Shown here one piece after another: positions 34,244 to 43,571 of a stretch of DNA of 64,000 nt (position 1 is its first letter; each line of letters begins with the position of its first letter). Position numbers and translations under genes: made by a program. The notes under the pieces are model-generated. The model was not told where the DNA came from. It searched no databases and saw only the letters and a list, made by a program, of their open reading frames with translations. Source of the stretch: Parasutterella excrementihominis (lineage in GTDB: Bacteria > Bacillota_I > Bacilli_A > RFN20 > CAG-826); contig CAVECL010000006.1 in assembly GCA_963614595.1 (NCBI GenBank), forward strand, positions 120 through 64,119. The letters are read 5' to 3'.

Positions 34244-34776
34244 GTCTATATGTAGTAAGACACGGGCAAACCGATTGGAACAAGAAATGGCTGATTCAAG
34301 GCAGAATCGATATCCCTTTGAATGAAGAGGGGATCAAACAGGCAAAACTCACGAAAGAGAAACTAGCGAAGATTAAGATCGACGTAATTTACGTCTCTCC
34401 CTTGCGAAGAGCGAGGCAAACCGCGGAAATAATAAACGAGGACCGTCATGCGCCTATCATCATTGACGAGCGCATCATCGAAGAATTCTATGGTGACATG
34501 GAAGGAAAGCCCCGTTCCGGAGAGGCCTATCTAACCCAACGAAAAAGTTTCTTCAAACGCTACCCCAACGGGGAAGGCTATCTTGACGTCGTCGCCAGGG
34601 TTTACCCCTTCCTAAACGAAATCAAGGCCACAAGACGAAACGAAAACGTTTTGCTTGTTTGCCATGGCGGCATGTCCAGAGTGCTCAATTCCTATTTCTA
34701 TGATATGGAAAACGAGGAATTCGTGAATTTCGGGCTCGATAATTGCGAAATCGCGACCTATGAGTTCAAAGATTAA
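34240..34776 (+). CDS. Histidine phosphatase (phosphoglycerate-mutase-like) family protein
   Basis: ORF trimmed to MSLYVVRHGQTDWN (RHG motif). The ATG overlaps the MATE stop (ATGA). GGAGGA SD is present. Confidence 0.88.
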   Translation: MSLYVVRHGQTDWNKKWLIQGRIDIPLNEEGIKQAKLTKEKLAKIKIDVIYVSPLRRARQTAEIINEDRHAPIIIDERIIEEFYGDMEGKPRSGEAYLTQRKSFFKRYPNGEGYLDVVARVYPFLNEIKATRRNENVLLVCHGGMSRVLNSYFYDMENEEFVNFGLDNCEIATYEFKD

Positions 34777-35375
34777 GCGGCGTGCTTAATTCGGCGCGTA
34801 TCGCCAAAAAGAACCAAGCTTTGCAGGGTTGATTGGAGATCCAAACTAGGATCACCATGCTCGGCAAAGCTTTTTTCTATGGTCTGTTTGAACTTAGGGT
34901 AAAGCTCTTTCATGTTATCATCAGCAACATGGTAACCCCTGGCGATGCCTTCCATGGCGATGCCGGAGAGGGTGAAAATCGGCCCTAAAGCAAAATCAGG
35001 AACCACCACTTTTTTCTGGGAATAAAGCACATAGGAGTAATAGGAGAAAAAGACGTCGCAGAGAGGATGGCAATCTTCGTTATCGTGATCATCAGGGTCC
35101 CAAGCGGGCCAGCGGACCGCGTTTTTCGTTCCAAGCAAAACCCCTCGGTTCACCCCGGCATCAATAAGGGCAATCAGCAAAGCGCGGAAACCGTCGTTCC
35201 CAAAATGCATGCGACCCATGAGGGAGCCTACCAGGGCCGGGATCATTTGTTTTTCCTCGCCCGTCGCCTTCTCCGGCAGCATATCCTCCGCCACTTTGCA
35301 GAAGAGACCGAAGCCCGTGGCTTGGTCAAGCATGTCCAATTGGTCAATTGCGACTTTCTCACGTTCGATTTTCAT
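34773..35375 (-). CDS. Hypothetical protein (last gene of the Vsr-Nudix operon)
   Basis: 200-aa ORF with AGGAG 7 nt upstream. No recognisable motif. Confidence 0.65.
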   Translation of the reverse strand: MKIEREKVAIDQLDMLDQATGFGLFCKVAEDMLPEKATGEEKQMIPALVGSLMGRMHFGNDGFRALLIALIDAGVNRGVLLGTKNAVRWPAWDPDDHDNEDCHPLCDVFFSYYSYVLYSQKKVVVPDFALGPIFTLSGIAMEGIARGYHVADDNMKELYPKFKQTIEKSFAEHGDPSLDLQSTLQSLVLFGDTRRIKHAA

Positions 35376-35439
35376 GTTCTATCTCCTAAAAAAGCTTCCG
35401 GAAAAGCTGGGGTTAATCGCCTTCCGAAAGCATGCATAT

Positions 35440-36414
35440 TCAAGCACGCTTCTTATTTTCATCAAGTCTTTTTCGCTTCTTTTTCTTGGCGCCTTTCTTC
35501 TTGGCCTCTTTGGGATAATAAGGTCCGTGGGTAGCGTATAGCTCGCCTCCGCGATATTCAAGAATCAATGAAAATGGGCGGGATTCTTTTTCTTCAAGAA
35601 GAGGTAGAAACGCCTTATCGCCTTCCCACATGGGGAGAGATGGCATCTCCTCTTTCTTGACCCAGGCGAGTTTCCCCTCGTCGCAGTCAATCAATTCGCC
35701 TGAGAAAGAAGTTACCTTGAAGAGGTACATCCTCTCCGGAGCGTAAGCGTCATTCAAAAAATCTATTTTGCCTAAGTAAGAATAGGCTTTCACATCAAGT
35801 CCGGTCTCTTCTTTTATTTCCCTTTTGAAAGCATGAACCATCGATTCGCCTTCTTCGATTTTGCCTCCGACCCCAATCCATTTTCCTTCATTCAGGTCAT
35901 TCTTCTTTTTAACGCGATGCAGAAGAAGATACCTCCCTTCGCTTTCAATGTAAGCCAAAGTGGTTTTCATCTTGATTGATTTCTGCCAGGCAAAAAGAGC
36001 TTCTCTTTCTTTGATTTTCTCCAAAATCTCCGCAAGAACCCTTTCTAATTCCTTCTCAATCTCTTTTCCCCAGTAACGCAAGACAAGGTAACCCTGCTTT
36101 TTTAGGGTTTCATTCACTTCCTTGTCTCTAGCAATATTCCGCTCGATCTTCGGAATCCAATAGGTCTGGTTCGAATGGATTTTGGTTTTGTTCTCTTCGA
36201 AATGGTAGCCATGCCAAAACTCGGAATCGCAGAAAATGGCGATTTTCAATTTCTCAATGCAGATATCGGGGTGTCCAAAAACTTTGGAGGAATATAGCCT
36301 GTAATGCACGCCAGAGCCAGAAAGCGCCTTGCGGAGAATAAGCTCTATGCCTGTATCCTTGCCACGGATGCGCGACATCGTGTAGGAAATGACTTTGGGG
36401 TCGCGGTTAGCCAT
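35440..36414 (-). CDS. Fusion protein: Vsr-like endonuclease domain + MutT-type Nudix hydrolase + Lys-rich tail
   Basis: The N-half MSRIRGKDTGIELILRKAL...GHPDICI...AIFCDSEFWHGYHF...YWIPKIERNIARDKEV...LRYW follows the Vsr pattern. The C-half has an intact Nudix box GKIEEGESMVHAFKREIKEETGL. The tail is KKKGAKKKKRKR. Confidence 0.8.
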   Translation of the reverse strand: MANRDPKVISYTMSRIRGKDTGIELILRKALSGSGVHYRLYSSKVFGHPDICIEKLKIAIFCDSEFWHGYHFEENKTKIHSNQTYWIPKIERNIARDKEVNETLKKQGYLVLRYWGKEIEKELERVLAEILEKIKEREALFAWQKSIKMKTTLAYIESEGRYLLLHRVKKKNDLNEGKWIGVGGKIEEGESMVHAFKREIKEETGLDVKAYSYLGKIDFLNDAYAPERMYLFKVTSFSGELIDCDEGKLAWVKKEEMPSLPMWEGDKAFLPLLEEKESRPFSLILEYRGGELYATHGPYYPKEAKKKGAKKKKRKRLDENKKRA

Positions 36415-36420
36415 GATTCC

Positions 36421-37959
36421 TTATTTGCCCGGGAAGCAGAGAGAGCGAAGCGCTTTGTAGTCCAAGGAAGGATCTTCGACGGAAATTCCATTATGGGTGA
36501 GGTAGGTAAGAGAAAGGTCATCCTCCTCATTCACTTCATAAATCGCGCAAAGGAGCTGGTCCTCCTTGTTCGCGAGCAAATACGCATAGGGCATGCCGTT
36601 CTTTTCAACGTTTAGGGCAAGCAGATCCCATGAATCGATGGTCGGAGCAAGGGCTTTCTCCAAGAGAGATTGCCTCTCCTTTTCGTCAATCGCGACGAAC
36701 GTGGTTTCCGAGGAATTAATGTTTTTGGGGGCTGAGCCAAAACGGCGTTCTCCTTCACGCACGAACTTGGAAGATACAAACTTCAAAGACGGATCATTGA
36801 AAATGGTATTCGAGCCATGGATATCCTTTTTTCTGCAGAATGAGTAAACCTTCTCGGTCTTCGGGGGAAGAGAGGGCTGCGCCACCGTTTTTGTTTCTGG
36901 ATGCTCAGAGCTTTCGGCCTGATAGGGGCGTTGATCTCTTCCATTGTTTTGGATAGTAACGTTCCCGGGCTTTTTGTTGGTGTTAGGAACAAAATCAGGT
37001 TTCGCAAACAATGGTTGCCCTTTCTTCTCTAAGACGGGTTTAGCAGACTTCTCATTCTCTTTCTCCCCGTACTTCCTTTGATTAGGAACCTTAGGGGCCG
37101 CAAAAGAAGTTTGTGAGGCCGGAGCTTTAGGCTGAACGTTGGGCTCAAAGGCTGGACGGGCAAACGAATTGGCAATCGCTTCTTGACTAGGTTCTTCTTT
37201 CCCCGCTTCGGAATTAGGGGAAAAGATTCTTCTATTTCTTGAGCAAGAGCCCAAATCACGGGGCTTTTTGCTTGAGCCTGCCGAAAAGGATTCCTTGACC
37301 ACCTCAATATGGACGGGGCCGTCGTCTTCCTCTTCTTCCGTAGGTTCGCTGAAATTATAGGAAGAGCCTAAGTCAAGAGTTCCTTTTTTGCAGGAAGGCT
37401 CAAAGGCAGGACGGGCAATATCAATATAAACGGGGTCATCGTCATCGCTCTCTTCGTTCTCGTCATCAGGAACGTAGTAGCCAAGATCGGTCGGTCTATT
37501 TTGTTTTTTGGGGGAGAACGAGGTCGAATTCATCGGCAAAGACAAGGTTGAAAGGAACTCCTTCCCGCTCATCGGTTCCCCTTCCTCCTCGCAGATTTCC
37601 ACATTATTGAGACAGCGCACGACAACTTCCTTATTCTTCAAAGAGATGACGAGGACGTTTTCCGGGTGCGCCCGGTTTATCAGCAAGGCGGTGCTGAGTT
37701 CATCGTCTTTATCGACAATAAGCGCAGGCAAGAACCATTCGGAAAAATGGAAATCCGTCCTAGAAAGTTCCATCACCGAATCTTCGCTCGTATTATTCGG
37801 ATAGAAAGAAGCGTTCTCGGAAAGAGGAAAGCAATGGACTTTTGCAAGGATTTCTTGAACTTTCTCGAAAAAAGGAAGGGTGAAAGAAGAGGAGTCGTTT
37901 GCAAGAAGCATCTCCCCCCGAGAAAGGGATGCCTGATATAAATAAACCGCCTGTTTCAT
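36421..37959 (-). CDS. Hypothetical protein with duplicated terminal domains and a repeat-containing disordered linker
   Basis: 512-aa ORF with GGAGG SD. Contains ARPAFEP/AKPDFVP repeats. The stop TAA overlaps the SD of the next gene. Confidence 0.7.
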   Translation of the reverse strand: MKQAVYLYQASLSRGEMLLANDSSSFTLPFFEKVQEILAKVHCFPLSENASFYPNNTSEDSVMELSRTDFHFSEWFLPALIVDKDDELSTALLINRAHPENVLVISLKNKEVVVRCLNNVEICEEEGEPMSGKEFLSTLSLPMNSTSFSPKKQNRPTDLGYYVPDDENEESDDDDPVYIDIARPAFEPSCKKGTLDLGSSYNFSEPTEEEEDDGPVHIEVVKESFSAGSSKKPRDLGSCSRNRRIFSPNSEAGKEEPSQEAIANSFARPAFEPNVQPKAPASQTSFAAPKVPNQRKYGEKENEKSAKPVLEKKGQPLFAKPDFVPNTNKKPGNVTIQNNGRDQRPYQAESSEHPETKTVAQPSLPPKTEKVYSFCRKKDIHGSNTIFNDPSLKFVSSKFVREGERRFGSAPKNINSSETTFVAIDEKERQSLLEKALAPTIDSWDLLALNVEKNGMPYAYLLANKEDQLLCAIYEVNEEDDLSLTYLTHNGISVEDPSLDYKALRSLCFPGK

Positions 37960-38056: not shown

Positions 38057-38575
38057 ATGCAACGAATCGCCCTAGTCCTATCCAGCCAACTCTCAAGCGT
38101 CGAAAAAGCCGCAAGGCGAGCCGATATGGATTTCGAAGACGCATACTTTGACAAGGATAGATTCCTTCAAGCCGTGAATGAAAGAAGGGCCTACGTCCTG
38201 AAAGACGGTTTAAAGGTTATTTCTCTCGCTTCGCTTTCCTTTTTCCCTCTAGAGGAAATCTACGGGAATGATATCCCAAAGCAAAACGAATTATTGGACC
38301 AGATTGGCTATTACGGCGAACCCCTGCTTTTCTTAGAATCCATTTTCACCGACCCTTTTTATAAAAAGAAAGGGAACGCGAAAGGTTTATTTCTTTCTCT
38401 CATCTCCACCCATAAAGAAGCGACTTGGCTTGCTTTGCTGCCCCCAACGCGCATTTCTCTTTTGCCTTTCTTCCAAGCCATCGGGTTCAAGCCCTATGAT
38501 TACGCTCAAAACCAATCTTTGATTTTGGTCCGCAAAAAAGAAAAAGAAGGGCTTTGCGCGAACCCTTCTTTCTAA
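38057..38575 (+). CDS. Possible GNAT-family acetyltransferase (weak)
   Basis: 172 aa. FTDPFYKKKGNAKGLFLSLI and FFQAIGFKP loosely fit GNAT motifs A and B. Confidence 0.4.
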   Translation: MQRIALVLSSQLSSVEKAARRADMDFEDAYFDKDRFLQAVNERRAYVLKDGLKVISLASLSFFPLEEIYGNDIPKQNELLDQIGYYGEPLLFLESIFTDPFYKKKGNAKGLFLSLISTHKEATWLALLPPTRISLLPFFQAIGFKPYDYAQNQSLILVRKKEKEGLCANPSF

Positions 38576-38580
38576 AGCGG

Positions 38581-40323
38581 TTAAGCAAGCTGGCTTTGAT
38601 AGAGCTCGGCGAAGAAGCCGTTTTGGCCCATGAGCTCATCGAAGTTTCCTTGTTCGATAATCTCCCCGTCTTTTAAGACGAGGATTAGATCGGAATTGCG
38701 AATCGTGGAGAGTCGATGGGCCACGACCAGGGATGTTTTCCCTTTCATCAGCTCGTCGAAGGCTTTCCCTAGAGCAAGCTCGGTGCGAAGGTCGATGTTG
38801 CTCGTCGCTTCGTCTAACAAAACGATCTCAGGCTTCACAAGCAGAATGCGCGCGACGCAAAGAAGCTGCTTCTCCCCTTGCGAGAGACCGCTGGAATTGC
38901 TGACGATCGTGTCGTAGCCGTCCGGGAGTCTGCGGATGAATTCATCCGCGTGAGCCTTTTGCGCCGCCTCAACGACCTCGTCCATGCTCGCATCGGGCTT
39001 TCCGAAAGCGATGTTTTCGCGGATGGAGGCTTTCTCAAGCCAAGTCTCCTGCAAGACCATGCCGATGTGACTGCGCATCTCGGACTTCTTCACTTCGCTA
39101 GTGGGAACGCCGTTCATCTCGAATCCGCCTTGCTGGGGATCGTAGAATCTCATCAAAAGATTGATGATGGTCGTCTTGCCGCACCCCGTCGGACCGACAA
39201 GAGCGATCTTGTGCCCTTTGTAGATATCAAGGTTGAAATTCTTGATGATCTGACGTTTGCCATCATAAGAGAAATTCATGTCCTTCGCTTCTAAGGTATC
39301 GATGGTCTTCCCAAGAGGCTTATCGCCATTATCGACGTCCTTCTCGCAAAGAACGGTTTGCTGAACCCTATCAAGCGAAGCAGTCGCATAAAAGACGTCG
39401 CTAGCGACATCGGCGATTTCATTGAAGGGGGTCATGTATTGCAAGGAGTAAGAAAGGAAAGAGGAGAGCGCACCTACCGTGAAATGAATCCCTAGCCAAG
39501 AAGGCGAAGCGATTAGAAGGTAGGCGCCGAACAAAATGATGGAGGCATAGATGAGGTTGTTCACCAAACGGGTGGAAGGGTTGATCCAAGCGGCTGCAAA
39601 AGTGGCTTTGAAATTGGCTTTCTTGACCTCCGCGTCCTTTTTCAGGAAGTCTTTTTCCCTCGCTTCTTCCATTCCGTAAGAATGGATGGCCTCAAGGTTA
39701 GAAAGGGATTCCAAAGAATGGGCGGTAAGCTCGCCCATCTTGGCGTTTTGCTGTTTGAAGTAAACAGAGTTGGATTTGCTGACGAAACGGCTGACGAGCA
39801 CCGAGATTGGGGTGAGCAAAACAACCGTCAGAGCCAACGCCCAATTCAGATAGAACATGAAGAAGAGAGTGATGGCAATTTGGACGATGCCCTCAAAAAG
39901 AGCGCCTGCCCCTGTGATGAGGCCGGTCTGGACGGTTTCGATGTCATTCGTAAGACGAAGGAGAAGGTCCCCATGCGGATGAGTATCCAGGTAAGACAGA
40001 GGCACTTGATTTAGAGCGTCGAAGAGGGTATCCCTCATGTTCTTCACGACGCGCTGGCCGCATTTAGAAAGAGCGTAATCGAAGGCGTAGCGGAACAAAG
40101 CGCCAATGATGATGAGGCCGAAAACCAAGAAAAGATAAGGCGTCAACTGATCTGAGGAAAAGGAGTCGCTCCTCATCAAATCGATGGCAAGGCCCGTCAC
40201 ATAAGGAATCGCCATCTTGGCGGTCACGGAGCAAAGAGCCAAGACAAAAGAGAGAATGAGCAATAGGACGTTCCCCTTCATATAGGGAAGGAGAGAAGAG
40301 AGATTCAAGGATTTCCTTTTCAT
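38581..40323 (-). CDS. ABC exporter, fused permease/ATPase (heterodimer partner 2)
   Basis: 6-TM N-domain, Walker A GPTGCGKTT, signature LSQGEKQLL, Walker B VLLDEATS. Confidence 0.92.
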   Translation of the reverse strand: MKRKSLNLSSLLPYMKGNVLLLILSFVLALCSVTAKMAIPYVTGLAIDLMRSDSFSSDQLTPYLFLVFGLIIIGALFRYAFDYALSKCGQRVVKNMRDTLFDALNQVPLSYLDTHPHGDLLLRLTNDIETVQTGLITGAGALFEGIVQIAITLFFMFYLNWALALTVVLLTPISVLVSRFVSKSNSVYFKQQNAKMGELTAHSLESLSNLEAIHSYGMEEAREKDFLKKDAEVKKANFKATFAAAWINPSTRLVNNLIYASIILFGAYLLIASPSWLGIHFTVGALSSFLSYSLQYMTPFNEIADVASDVFYATASLDRVQQTVLCEKDVDNGDKPLGKTIDTLEAKDMNFSYDGKRQIIKNFNLDIYKGHKIALVGPTGCGKTTIINLLMRFYDPQQGGFEMNGVPTSEVKKSEMRSHIGMVLQETWLEKASIRENIAFGKPDASMDEVVEAAQKAHADEFIRRLPDGYDTIVSNSSGLSQGEKQLLCVARILLVKPEIVLLDEATSNIDLRTELALGKAFDELMKGKTSLVVAHRLSTIRNSDLILVLKDGEIIEQGNFDELMGQNGFFAELYQSQLA

Positions 40324-42077
40324 TTTGTCTTCACCTGCGTTTCATAGATTTCCTGATAAATCGGGCAAGAGGTCAGGAGCTCTTCATGGGTCCCGTGGCC
40401 CACGATTTTCCCTTTGTCCAAGACGTAAATATGGTTGCAATCCTTGATGGAAGTCGCCCTTTGGGAGACCATGACCAAGGTCAAATCCTTAACTTTTGCG
40501 ATGTTTTTGCGAACCATGAGGTCGCTTTTGTAATCAAGTGCGCTCGTGGCGTCATCCAAGAAAAGGACGGGGCGGTTCGAGAGCAAGGCGCGCGCGATCA
40601 AAAGACGCTGCTTTTGCCCGCCTGAGAAATTTTGCCCCCCTTCTTCCACTTCGTGATCGAGCCCGTCTTTGTAGCGAACCACGAATTCTTCCGCCAAAGA
40701 ATCCTTCAAGGCCTTCCAGATTTCCTCTTCGCTGGCATCCGGCTTCCCTAGAAGCATGTTGGAGCGGATAGTCCCGCGGAAAAGCTGTTTCTTTTGACTA
40801 ACCAAAGCAATCTCGGAGCGAAGATTCTCGAGTTTGCTTTCTTGAATCGGATGGCCATGGAAGAGAAGTTCGCCACTAGTCAAATCGTAGAAGCGTTCCA
40901 TCAAATTGAGCAACGTCGATTTGCCTGAACCCGTGCCGCCGATGATGCCAACGGATTCGCCCTTGGCGATCGTCATGTCAATGTCTTGAAGGGCGAGGCT
41001 TTCGCCACCAAAACTAAGGCAAGCCTTTTTGAATTCAAAGACAGGCTCCCCTTCTTTCAGTTCTTTCTCTTTCTCGAGTGAGCCGGAAACGATATCGGGC
41101 TCTAACGCCAAGAAGTCGTCGATCCTCTTTTTCGAGGTGAATGCCTTCGAAAGAGAGGTAATCAGGCGGGTGAACATGATAAGCGCAGACAAAGAAGTCG
41201 TTAGATAGTTCACCAGAGCGACGATGTCGCCAACGGAAAGCGAAGCGTTGGCGTTATGAAATCCGCCGATATAGAAAACCAAAAGAACCGCTCCGTTGAT
41301 CAAGGCGAAGGTAAGAGGGTTGATGAGCGCGTTGATTTTCGAAATGACGAGAGCTTGCTTCCGATAGCATTCGCTGGCATCGCGGAACTCTTTCGTCTCC
41401 ACCGCCTCTTTGTTGAAGGAACGCACGACCCTCGCGCCGACAATCTCGTCTTCGCCGCGGCTAGAGATGATGTCTAACTGCTTTTGGAGCTTCGCGTATT
41501 GCTTTGGCGTAGAGCAAACAACCAAGCCAATCACCAAGCCGGACAAAACCAAAGAGCCAAGCACGACGCAGCCGGCGATTGGATTGATGATGAAGCTGGC
41601 CACAATGGAGCCAAGGACCAAAAAAGGGGCCCTCACAATGAGACGCATCAGCATTTGGACTCCGTTTTGCACCAAAAACGAGTCATTGTTCAGCAGATTA
41701 AGCGCTTTGTTGCGGCCATAATCATCAAGCTGCTTCGAGGAAAGCAAATGAATTCTCTCGTAGATGACTTTCTTTAAATCATAGGAATAATCGCTGCTCA
41801 CCCTCGCGGCCAAATACTGCGTGATCATCGTCACGGCAAAGCCGGCAATTGCCAGCCCAAACATGACGCAGGCAAGAGTTAGGATGTAGTTCCAGTCGTG
41901 GTAATGAGCGCCGCTTTCATCTAGGCCTTGGTCGATGATGCGACTCACAAGAATCGGGACAATCAATTCTGTGACAGCTTCGAATAATTTGAAAATCGGC
42001 GCCAAAATGACTTTGACCCGATATTTTTTAAGCGGGGCAAAAGCCTTGTGCGCATAAGCTTCTTCGTTTTCTTCCAT
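40320..42077 (-). CDS. ABC exporter, fused permease/ATPase (heterodimer partner 1)
   Basis: 6-TM N-domain, Walker A GGTGSGKST, signature FSGGQKQRL, Walker B LFLDDATS. 4-nt overlap with the partner gene. Confidence 0.92.
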   Translation of the reverse strand: MEENEEAYAHKAFAPLKKYRVKVILAPIFKLFEAVTELIVPILVSRIIDQGLDESGAHYHDWNYILTLACVMFGLAIAGFAVTMITQYLAARVSSDYSYDLKKVIYERIHLLSSKQLDDYGRNKALNLLNNDSFLVQNGVQMLMRLIVRAPFLVLGSIVASFIINPIAGCVVLGSLVLSGLVIGLVVCSTPKQYAKLQKQLDIISSRGEDEIVGARVVRSFNKEAVETKEFRDASECYRKQALVISKINALINPLTFALINGAVLLVFYIGGFHNANASLSVGDIVALVNYLTTSLSALIMFTRLITSLSKAFTSKKRIDDFLALEPDIVSGSLEKEKELKEGEPVFEFKKACLSFGGESLALQDIDMTIAKGESVGIIGGTGSGKSTLLNLMERFYDLTSGELLFHGHPIQESKLENLRSEIALVSQKKQLFRGTIRSNMLLGKPDASEEEIWKALKDSLAEEFVVRYKDGLDHEVEEGGQNFSGGQKQRLLIARALLSNRPVLFLDDATSALDYKSDLMVRKNIAKVKDLTLVMVSQRATSIKDCNHIYVLDKGKIVGHGTHEELLTSCPIYQEIYETQVKTK

Positions 42078-42089
42078 ACAGGGGTTCCT

Positions 42090-43466
42090 TTATTTTGAAA
42101 CGAGCACGTCATTGCCGTCTACGGACTCGGAAACATCTTCTTGTCTCAAGCGGATCTCGGCGATGACGGTATCAAGTTCTTCCTCTTCCCCATAACGCAG
42201 GAAAGAATAGCCGTCGTCAGTCACGACGACCTCATCGAAATTGCTTTCGCCATTGCAATTAAAGGAGACGACGTCGATGAAGGACCATTTGATTTTCGGC
42301 TTGTTGAGTCCGCAGAAAAGATTGGCGGCGTCTACAAGCAAGCCGGGGCGGTCGCTCTCAAGTTCGAAAACAAGATTCCCGGTCTCTTCCTCATAGGACA
42401 CGAAAGTAAACTTCTTTTTGGAGTAATCTGGGGTGTTGGGGTCGCCATAGGTGTCGAAAAAGGTATCCACATCGAATAGGGGCTCGCCTTGCTTCGCGCC
42501 AATTTTTTTGCCTAGAAGAGCAATTTGCGCATTGATGTCATCCACGAAAGAGTCTCTCGCATCAATGCCTAAAGCGATGGATTTCGCAGCGGCGGCGAAC
42601 TGCGCGATCAAATAATATTTAAGGGCGAAATTCTCTTCCTTGTTGATTCCCCATCCATTCTGGGCGCATTTAGCGAGGCGATAGGCGAATTCAGGCAGCA
42701 GGCTTTGATGCAAGTGACAGTTTAAGAAGTCTGAATAGCTTTGCGAGAAGCCATTCAAAACCGCGCGGTAAGCAAAATCATCGTCAGGTTTGACCGGATG
42801 GCCGAAGTGATAGCAATCGGCGATGCGGAAAACGGCTTCAAGGGACCCTAAAGCCGCAGCCTTTGAAAAGCATTCAAAGCAGGCCATCTTGTTTTTTTTC
42901 GGACCATTTCCATTGAAAAGGAGAACGCCGAGCCTGCAAAGGCCGTAAGGGTCTTGCGCCACCAGAGGTGCCGAGTAAAAGCCGATCGCTAATTGATAAT
43001 CTGGCTTTTGGTGTTTGGCTGAGCCAGAATAGAAATCACCAAGAAGAAGATAAGCTCTAGGGTCGTTCGCAGACGCGAGGTCGAAAAGGTAACGGAGAAA
43101 AAGGGTTTCATTTTTCTTCGTTTGGGGGATTTTGCCTGTAACATAGCGGTCAATGTATTTGTTCAAAGCCTCGGGGCTTTTATCGTCGACATCGCCTCCG
43201 TAAAAAGCCTCGCTCATTTCATTGAGAACCGCTTTGGTGAGCGGGACGCCGGAGGCATCTCCAATCACCGCGGCCATGCCACATTCGGGGCAAACAGCAG
43301 AAGCTCCCCCGTTTGTTCCGTCCTCCCACTGCGAGACTTTCCTCGCGTTGAAAGTCTTCCCGCAAAAAAAGCATCCGCACTTTTTGGAGCGGAGGATTTC
43401 GATTTCGTTGTTAACACTGTGAGATTTATAGCCTTCTAGAATGGCTTTTCGTTCTTTCTTTATCAT
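42090..43466 (-). CDS. Zinc-ribbon + Sel1-repeat protein
   Basis: ORF trimmed to MIKKERK. CGCFFCG...CPECG four-Cys ribbon, then Sel1-like repeats (LLGDFYSGS.., LGVLLFNGNG.., AVFRIADCYHFGH). The C-terminal domain is unknown. Confidence 0.6.
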   Translation of the reverse strand: MIKKERKAILEGYKSHSVNNEIEILRSKKCGCFFCGKTFNARKVSQWEDGTNGGASAVCPECGMAAVIGDASGVPLTKAVLNEMSEAFYGGDVDDKSPEALNKYIDRYVTGKIPQTKKNETLFLRYLFDLASANDPRAYLLLGDFYSGSAKHQKPDYQLAIGFYSAPLVAQDPYGLCRLGVLLFNGNGPKKNKMACFECFSKAAALGSLEAVFRIADCYHFGHPVKPDDDFAYRAVLNGFSQSYSDFLNCHLHQSLLPEFAYRLAKCAQNGWGINKEENFALKYYLIAQFAAAAKSIALGIDARDSFVDDINAQIALLGKKIGAKQGEPLFDVDTFFDTYGDPNTPDYSKKKFTFVSYEEETGNLVFELESDRPGLLVDAANLFCGLNKPKIKWSFIDVVSFNCNGESNFDEVVVTDDGYSFLRYGEEEELDTVIAEIRLRQEDVSESVDGNDVLVSK

Positions 43467-43571
43467 CCCGGCTATCTTATCACACTTGTTCTTCCTAAAA
43501 GGAAGCAGTTCAAAGAAGAGAGTCTTTTTTCTCTTGATTGACCTAGCAAAGAAAAGTGGCAAAATTTTTGC

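Follow-up and report, generated by a model that had tools for sequence, protein, structure and literature searches.

Organization of the Locus

The window analyzed here is a 64,000-nucleotide stretch of contig CAVECL010000006.1 (assembly GCA_963614595.1, positions 120 to 64,119 of the forward strand), deposited as Parasutterella excrementihominis and placed by its GTDB lineage in Bacilli_A, RFN20, CAG-826. At 34773-37959 it contains three closely packed open reading frames on the minus strand, called A, B and C here in the order in which they are read. The subject of this report is the middle one. Gene B (35440..36414, minus strand) encodes a protein of 324 aa in which a Vsr-type endonuclease is joined to a Nudix hydrolase. 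Gene A (36421..37959, minus strand; 512 aa) lies upstream of it, and gene C (34773..35375, minus strand; 200 aa) lies downstream. The stop codon of A (TAA, 36423-36421) stands 6 nt ahead of the ATG of the fusion, within the Shine–Dalgarno sequence AAGGA, and the ATG of C is preceded at 7 nt by AGGAG. Both features had been noted in an earlier reading of this DNA from its letters alone (the sequence-only reading), which proposed that B is translationally coupled to A and that C has a ribosome binding site of its own. That reading also called the three genes an operon. Three tightly coupled genes do exist, but they are not a fixed unit, since A or C is missing from some related loci. A scan of the locus for promoters and terminators returned none exceeding the shuffled background.

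The fusion protein can be divided into three parts, all encoded on the minus strand. Residues 1-140 (35995..36414), aligned to E. coli Vsr (1cw0), form a Vsr endonuclease domain of a zinc-free subfamily. Residues ~148-300 (35515..35973) form a Nudix hydrolase domain resembling MTH1, and within it the translation reads as a Nudix box at residues 184-206 (35797..35865), GKIEEGESMVHAFKREIKEETGL, which matches the consensus GX5EX7REUXEEXGU. Residues 301-324 (35443..35514) are a Lys/Arg-rich tail, also read from the translation, as the earlier mention of a poly-Lys tail implied. In Pfam, the protein matches Vsr at residues 6-73 (E 2.2e-20), DUF559 at residues 94-134 and NUDIX at residues 157-272 (E 3.7e-16). 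It belongs to both families by their own cut-offs, scoring 72.7 against 27 for PF03852 (Vsr) and 59.8 against 21.1 for PF00293 (NUDIX). The NCBIfam model TIGR00632 (vsr) gives 114.9 bits against a curated cut-off of 97.85.

Conservation was judged over the 120 homologues that rank highest in the database; one is truncated at its N-terminus, which leaves 119 covering the Vsr positions. In all 120, which come from independent assemblies and are 55-99% identical, Vsr and NUDIX share one open reading frame of 294-334 aa. Those that are named are labelled solely "DNA mismatch endonuclease Vsr", and their sources are Erysipelotrichaceae or Bacilli metagenome-assembled genomes. The C-terminal tail varies in length and sequence among them, with a median of 10 K+R in the last 30 residues. 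The sequence-only reading had raised the fear that a frameshift or assembly error had fused two separate genes. The gene is indeed split in two or truncated in a few genomes of the genus (G364, G378, G366). Against an artefact stand the unbroken frame, with no internal stop, the conserved linker between the two domains, and the presence of the fusion in 57 of the 58 genomes of the genus as well as in every one of the homologues from independent assemblies. These already refute it, and its probability is negligible. The Vsr::Nudix fusion is real, intact and conserved. A literature search found no description of it, and the Nudix clan review (PMC5389931) makes no mention of Vsr.

The Vsr Half and Its Zinc-Free Subfamily

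The Vsr half aligns to E. coli Vsr in HMMER with an E of 5.7e-14. All four of the E. coli zinc ligands are replaced (C66 by E65, H71 by Y70, C73 by F72 and C117 by K117), and H64 becomes D63. The catalytic Asp51 and His69 (here D50 and H68) are kept, as are Glu25 and the wedge residues Phe67, Trp68, Trp86, Met14 and Ile17. Ten positions, D50, D63, H68, E24, F66, W67, W86, M13, I16 and N93, are identical in 119/119 covering homologues. At the former zinc ligand positions, the fused homologues have E65, Y70 and F72, and position 117 is variable. The description of a divergent, zinc-less Vsr with its core retained therefore holds.

What did not hold is the view of the ligand loss as a peculiarity of the fusion. 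The structural zinc site (Cys66/His71/Cys73/Cys117) is also absent from the stand-alone relatives in the sister genus (g25), where the corresponding motif reads FCDSEFWHGY.F ... FWG, and from those of another family of the order (f3), where it reads FCDGDFFHGYD ... WEHE. The Vsr of genome G012, which is linked to a Dcm gene, has CDGDFWHGKDF ... WEK. Four longer proteins, P0178/P0179 (569 aa) and P0180/P0181 (583 aa), have an N-terminal zinc-free Vsr, 47% identical to that of the fusion, joined to a PF00145 methyltransferase; P0178 lacks the zinc site, and P0178/P0179 share with the fusion the signature FCDSEFWHGY..RFWGKEI. In contrast, the Vsr from a Dcm island in genome G052 keeps the ligands (HGCFWHRHEGC ... 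WEC) and forms a long outgroup branch in the Vsr tree. Since the ligands are replaced throughout these relatives, stand-alone and methyltransferase-fused alike, the fusion is a member of a zinc-free Vsr subfamily of this order and not of the E. coli type.

The Nudix Half

Among solved structures, the Nudix half is matched best by human MTH1/NUDT1 (3e-16) and a MutT-like protein of B. halodurans (8e-14), followed by a MutT/nudix protein of S. pneumoniae (2e-10) and E. coli NudG (2rrk, 9e-8). The NudG profile PRK10546 is matched with an E of 4.8e-11. The Nudix box was called intact from the letters alone, and its residues G184, E187, E190, R198, E199, E202 and E203 prove to be invariant in the 120 homologues. 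So are W263, G265 and D266, of which W263 and D266 are the equivalents of MTH1 W117 and D120. Taken with the invariant residues of the Vsr half, this suggests that both halves of the fusion are under selection for catalysis.

The fused Nudix half is 48-58% identical to stand-alone Nudix proteins of ~155-170 aa in many other genera, including sister genera, to whose genes it is orthologous. The four other Nudix genes of this genome reach at most 29% identity to it. Since none is closer, the fused half is more likely than any of them to be the genome's MutT equivalent, and is the best candidate for its missing MutT function. Relatives of the Nudix half also occur in other fusions. P0177 (687 aa; 51% identity) joins a close relative to a histidine kinase/response regulator, and P0182 (598 aa; 38% identity) joins one to a SAM-methyltransferase domain.

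Distribution, Synteny and Origin

The fusion is present in 31 of the 32 high-quality genomes of the genus, and also in G289, a genome labelled as belonging to the sister genus. Vsr is single-copy in this genome, the GC content is flat across the locus, and no mobile-element genes were seen near the fusion in the window. The order of genes is a Sel1-repeat protein, two ABC exporters, a divergent GNAT-like gene, then A where present, B, and C where present. The Sel1-ABC-ABC-GNAT block is conserved in every related locus that was read, and the fusion always adjoins the same ABC-ABC pair. The GNAT-like gene (38057..38575, plus strand) was assigned by tblastn alignment with its positional counterparts; it has no Pfam match in the window, and the counterparts in related loci match Acetyltransf_1. 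The two ABC exporter genes and the gene for the Sel1-repeat/Zn-ribbon protein (38581..43562, minus strand) were traced by tblastn synteny across loci of the two genera and by Pfam, and are taken as context outside the module. The protein that heads this block (42090-43562, minus strand; 490 aa) has an N-terminal Cys-rich segment (CxxC...CxxC) followed by Sel1 repeats. The Sel1-ABC-ABC block travels with vsr in two genera.

In the sister genus, a gene beside the same ABC pair encodes Vsr by itself (140-145 aa), with 56-66% identity to the Vsr half. In a maximum-likelihood tree of Vsr domains, all of the Nudix-fused halves fall in one clade (support 89/85). The fusion thus appears to have arisen once, in the ancestor of one genus of uncultured gut Bacilli. 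Since Vsr stands alone at the same locus in the sister genus and the same Nudix stands alone elsewhere, the fusion looks derived and vertically inherited, and not like a mobile module. The event would have been the joining of the lineage's stand-alone MTH1-like Nudix gene to the 3' end of the vsr already resident beside the Sel1-ABC-ABC-GNAT block.

Two further observations concern gene order in related loci. In the sister-genus genome G064 (L027:8039-8791), the stand-alone vsr overlaps by 4 nt with, and is translationally coupled to, an upstream gene for a lipoprotein-like product of 250 aa, which takes the place of protein A. In three other loci (L034:9548-10785, L045:7676-8807 and L046:11030-12258), the fusion and a C-like gene are followed by a second NUDIX gene (~200 aa) and then by an unannotated gene of ~180-210 aa; this pair is not adjacent to the fusion in the present window.

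Cytosine Methyltransferases

Vsr is tied in textbooks to a partner cytosine methyltransferase. The sequence-only reading had found no such gene nearby, and the search can now be extended to the genome. PF00145 (C5 methyltransferase) has no match in the whole 1.71-Mb, 94.6%-complete genome, under conditions in which control genomes were matched as expected. The arrangement of canonical very-short-patch repair, with a C5 methyltransferase gene next to vsr or, failing that, elsewhere in the genome, is therefore not found here. Across the genus, C5 methyltransferases occur in 28 of the 58 genomes (18 of the 32 high-quality ones), never adjacent to the fusion, the nearest being 10 kb away (G311). 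Of the 14 high-quality genomes that have none, the fusion is present in at least 13. Because the methyltransferases come and go in the genus while the fusion stays, the fusion does not appear to depend on a resident Dcm.

Elsewhere the association is visible. Each of the sporadic Vsr genes in other parts of the family (G012, G052, G059) lies beside a Dcm gene. In G012 (contig C143, L031:6048-8223), a same-strand row consists of a Nudix gene (134 aa, NUDIX_4-like), a zinc-free Vsr gene (144 aa) and a gene for an HTH-C5 methyltransferase (422 aa). Its Nudix is a different paralog, 28% identical to the fused Nudix, and the row is a second, independent association of Nudix with Vsr. Together with the methyltransferase-fused proteins P0178-P0181, this row suggests that the Vsr subfamily is still tied to 5-methylcytosine (5mC).

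Mismatch Repair and Base Excision Genes

The sole MutS_V protein of the genome is MutS2 (MutS_V plus Smr), and no MutS_I, DNA_mis_repair (MutL) or MutL_C domain was found in it. MutL was found in none of 20 genomes of the genus and in none of 32 of the sister genus. In family f3, 62 of 67 genomes have MutL, coexisting with the same type of Vsr. Most MutL-less genera of the family carry no Vsr. We asked whether Vsr takes the place of MutL. This holds within the family, where MutL is missing from all genomes that bear Vsr, but the idea fails at the level of the order, where f3 has both, so that Vsr is no simple stand-in for MutL.

On a wider scale, canonical MutS1/MutL mismatch repair was found neither in this genome (G000) nor in most genera of its family, f1, where 13 of the 48 genera sampled have MutL; in the order's other families such repair is almost universal. 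The genome does have UDG, Nth, Fpg and a MutY-like gene. The last (360 aa) scores slightly under the TIGR01084 cut-off (277.6 against 286.5), and its start overlaps by 4 nt with a NudC-like Nudix gene (169 aa). The two genes (contig C11, L040:347-1935) are a further pairing of Nudix with repair in this genome.

Flanking Proteins A and C

Protein A gave no family match in scans of Pfam, NCBIfam and PADLOC, and just 39 cluster representatives of it occur among 1.84 billion proteins. The AlphaFold2 (AF2) model consists of two similar alpha/beta domains (residues 1-140 and 370-512, pLDDT above 90) separated by a linker of ~230 disordered acidic residues. Searched with the whole 512-residue model, Foldseek (best E 0.14) and a VIA-wide search (best Z 5.0) returned no usable match, and the resemblance of the domains to cystatin/NTF2/RelE-like alpha+beta folds is weak in the same whole-model search (Z <= 5). 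The linker contains 1-4 copies of a motif near I-E-V-x-R-P-x-F-x-x-x-S-K-K-K-P-x-N-L-G. Each copy follows an acidic run; in the window they fall at 36900-37450 (residues ~170-340 of A), and they are seen also in P0139, P0143 and P0147. In appearance it is a motif for multivalent docking, with a loose likeness to acidic I-P-F tails of the kind found at the SSB C-terminus.

The forms of A of ~500 aa align with the first ~480 residues of proteins of 1240-1325 aa in related genomes. In the long forms of G140, G063 and G311 (1293-1325 aa), the remainder is a UvrD-like helicase (UvrD-helicase/AAA_19). Pfam finds no helicase domain in the 512-aa protein of the window, which thus does not qualify as a UvrD-like accessory. 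No A-fusion or helicase-fusion polypeptide was found among the longer homologues. A complex prediction of A residues 1-240 plus 365-512 with the fusion, run without controls, gave a score of 0.20 and a mark of 0.32.

Protein C is all-helical in its AF2 model (pLDDT 90.9) and has 13 database homologues. It too is without a family match in Pfam, NCBIfam and PADLOC, and without a structural match in Foldseek against PDB (best E 0.13), VIA-wide (best Z 5.2) or ESM Atlas (TM <= 0.32). A homolog of C follows the fusion in G119, G140 and the P0032 locus, and the similar P0093 locus has a 206-aa gene at the same position. Protein A is absent from both of the latter loci. C is displaced in G024, and a patatin gene stands instead in G095, P0106 and P0085. 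A and C are therefore frequent but not universal partners of the fusion, and are lineage-specific accessories.

Interpretation

The architecture, conservation, distribution and synteny of the fusion are direct observations, and from them we infer what it acts on, that it nicks, and whatever role A or C may have. The fusion is probably a bifunctional, vertically inherited chromosomal enzyme of mutation avoidance. In the Vsr half, the E/Y/F cluster would stand in for the structural zinc site. That half is predicted to wedge into DNA at a T:G mismatch and to nick on the 5' side of the T in the manner of E. coli Vsr, probably in a relaxed sequence context like that of V.NgoAXIII. The Nudix half would act as a MutT/MTH1-type pyrophosphohydrolase that rids the pool of a damaged or modified dNTP. 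The sequence-only reading had left two functional options, a repair enzyme and an effector of defence or toxin immunity. Repair fits a single-copy gene found in 57 of 58 genomes, in a conserved housekeeping neighborhood of flat composition, and defence is disfavored for the same reasons.

Several points weigh against a mutation-avoidance enzyme of this kind. Of the base-recognition residues of MTH1 as an 8-oxo-dGTPase (Asn33, Asp119, Asp120, Trp117), Asn33 and Asp119 are changed, to I180 and G265. The score against the MutT equivalog TIGR00586 is 29.9, below its cut-off of 97.9, and that against NudG PRK10546 is 42.6, below 156. With these residues changed and both scores under their cut-offs, the substrate may lie anywhere between oxidized purine and modified pyrimidine dNTPs. 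The Nudix half also matches the PADLOC candidate model PDC-S07 (6e-17). Half of the genus is without a detectable source of 5-methylcytosine, and the origin of T:G mismatches is unexplained there. Finally, tight coupling to two fast-evolving proteins of unknown family is unusual for a plain repair gene.

The fusion might instead be dedicated to 5mC, with the Vsr half mending T:G mismatches that arise by 5mC deamination at the sites of a strain's restriction-modification-type C5 methyltransferase, and the Nudix half destroying 5-methyl-dCTP, or a similar modified pyrimidine dNTP set free when DNA is turned over, in the manner of E. coli NudG. NudG is listed as a 5-methyl-dCTP pyrophosphatase (PMC5389931), and the Nudix half matches it in both the profile and the structure searches. 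The occurrence of C5 methyltransferases in 28 of the 58 genomes, the Vsr domains of the same subfamily fused to such enzymes, and the row of Nudix, zinc-free Vsr and Dcm genes in G012 point the same way. We nevertheless consider this unlikely. The present genome has no detected C5 methyltransferase, and the fusion persists in nearly all of the 14 high-quality genomes that lack one. The Nudix half is far nearer to MTH1 than to NudG, its stand-alone orthologs are spread across many genera regardless of Dcm, and the Nudix gene of the G012 row is another paralog. Less likely again is a self-contained mismatch repair system replacing MutS and MutL, in which Vsr makes the nick, A serves for unwinding or recruitment with the helicase that it bears in some species, and the pool used for resynthesis is kept clean by the Nudix half. 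Such a system would suit a genome with only MutS2, in a genus and a sister genus where MutL was not found. MutL normally stimulates Vsr enzymes (PMC6116569), so another helper may be needed, and A, whose translation is coupled to that of the fusion, has the UvrD-like helicase in G140, G063 and G311. The same Vsr type coexists with MutL in f3, however, most MutL-less genera of the family manage without Vsr, some fusion loci have no A, and no A-fusion or helicase-fusion polypeptide has turned up. In its fullest form, where the fusion, A and C in a lineage without MutS1/MutL make up an autonomous short-patch system for T:G mismatches of any origin, the idea is equally doubtful. A would then be a two-domain scaffold with a multivalent acidic "P-x-F...KKKP-x-NLG" array, joined to a helicase in some species, and the steps would be to nick, unwind and resynthesize with a locally cleaned dNTP pool.

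Least probable of the functional alternatives, and only barely worth entertaining, is a defence or toxin-immunity module in which the nuclease/Nudix protein is the effector and A or C the sensor, inhibitor or immunity protein. The flanking proteins are fast-evolving and outside known families, the A domains have their weak resemblance to RelE/cystatin/NTF2-like folds, and PADLOC gives domain-level matches to Vsr (1e-14) as well as to PDC-S07. No PADLOC system is assigned, though, and the flanking proteins match none of its families. The locus matches no known defence system beyond single domains; it is fixed in the genus and not patchily distributed; and no island or mobile context was found, the synteny being of a housekeeping kind common to the sister genus and the composition without anomaly. 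Lineages that keep the fusion can dispense with A and with C.

What sets the mutation-avoidance enzyme apart is that Vsr is fixed in a whole genus with or without a methyltransferase, that it has lost its zinc site, that MutL was not found in its genome, and that it has captured the lineage's MutT-like enzyme. Its parts are known and their combination is new. The advance is moderate, both halves being ordinary members of well-studied families. If the fusion were a context-free T:G nickase and pool sanitizer, it would reveal a way in which gut Bacilli with small genomes keep C-to-T and oxidative mutations in check in the absence of canonical mismatch repair, and it might serve as a compact mismatch-nicking reagent. 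To the bare observation of the fusion, the analysis adds the counts of fusion against Dcm across the genus, the order-level test of MutL, the zinc-free subfamily with its Dcm-fused forms, the orthology of the Nudix half, and the models of A and C.

Comparison with Known Systems

The nearest reference for the Vsr half is E. coli Vsr (V.EcoKDcm; 1CW0/1VSR; TIGR00632, PF03852). The fusion scores above the family cut-off and shares with it the catalytic Asp and His, the Glu of the N-terminal helix, the intercalating Phe-Trp pair, the second Trp and the N-terminal Met and Ile. It differs in having none of the four zinc ligands, in having Asp for His64 and in being joined to a Nudix domain. Unlike in E. 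coli, there is no linked or overlapping dcm, and neither dcm nor the stimulator MutL was found in the genome. The Dcm-fused Vsr proteins (P0178-P0181) and the G012 row belong to the same zinc-free subfamily, with a Nudix gene associated in G012, but there the partner is a methyltransferase and the Nudix is a separate and different paralog; here the Nudix is fused and the methyltransferase is absent.

Precedents exist for relaxed specificity and for independence from a methyltransferase. V.NgoAXIII of Neisseria gonorrhoeae cuts T:G in all contexts (PMC6116569), and the Caulobacter gene for VsrA is linked to no methyltransferase gene (PMC12907096). These are likened to the fusion by description and not by sequence. 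Their hosts have retained both C5 methyltransferases and MutL, and the proteins themselves have no Nudix domain attached.

On the Nudix side, human MTH1/NUDT1 and the bacterial MutT/MutX-type hydrolases (PDB 5ws7, 3fk9, 2b06) are the best solved matches, with E from 3e-16 to 2e-10. The fusion has in common with them the intact Nudix box, the invariant equivalents of W117 and D120 and the MTH1-type C-terminal strands. It differs from MTH1 in having Ile for N33 and Gly for D119, in its fused nuclease and in its Lys-rich tail. With those two residues changed, its base specificity probably differs from that of MTH1. The Nudix half thus appears MTH1-like in sequence and fold, from which the same specificity does not follow. 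The other relevant comparison is MutY, a glycosylase with a C-terminal Nudix-fold domain that is without a Nudix box and reads 8-oxoG in DNA. MutY, like the fusion, combines a DNA-repair catalytic domain and a Nudix-fold domain in one polypeptide (Nudix clan review, PMC5389931). Whereas the Nudix box is lost in MutY, it is fully conserved in the fusion, which points to a working hydrolase, as predicted for the Nudix half.

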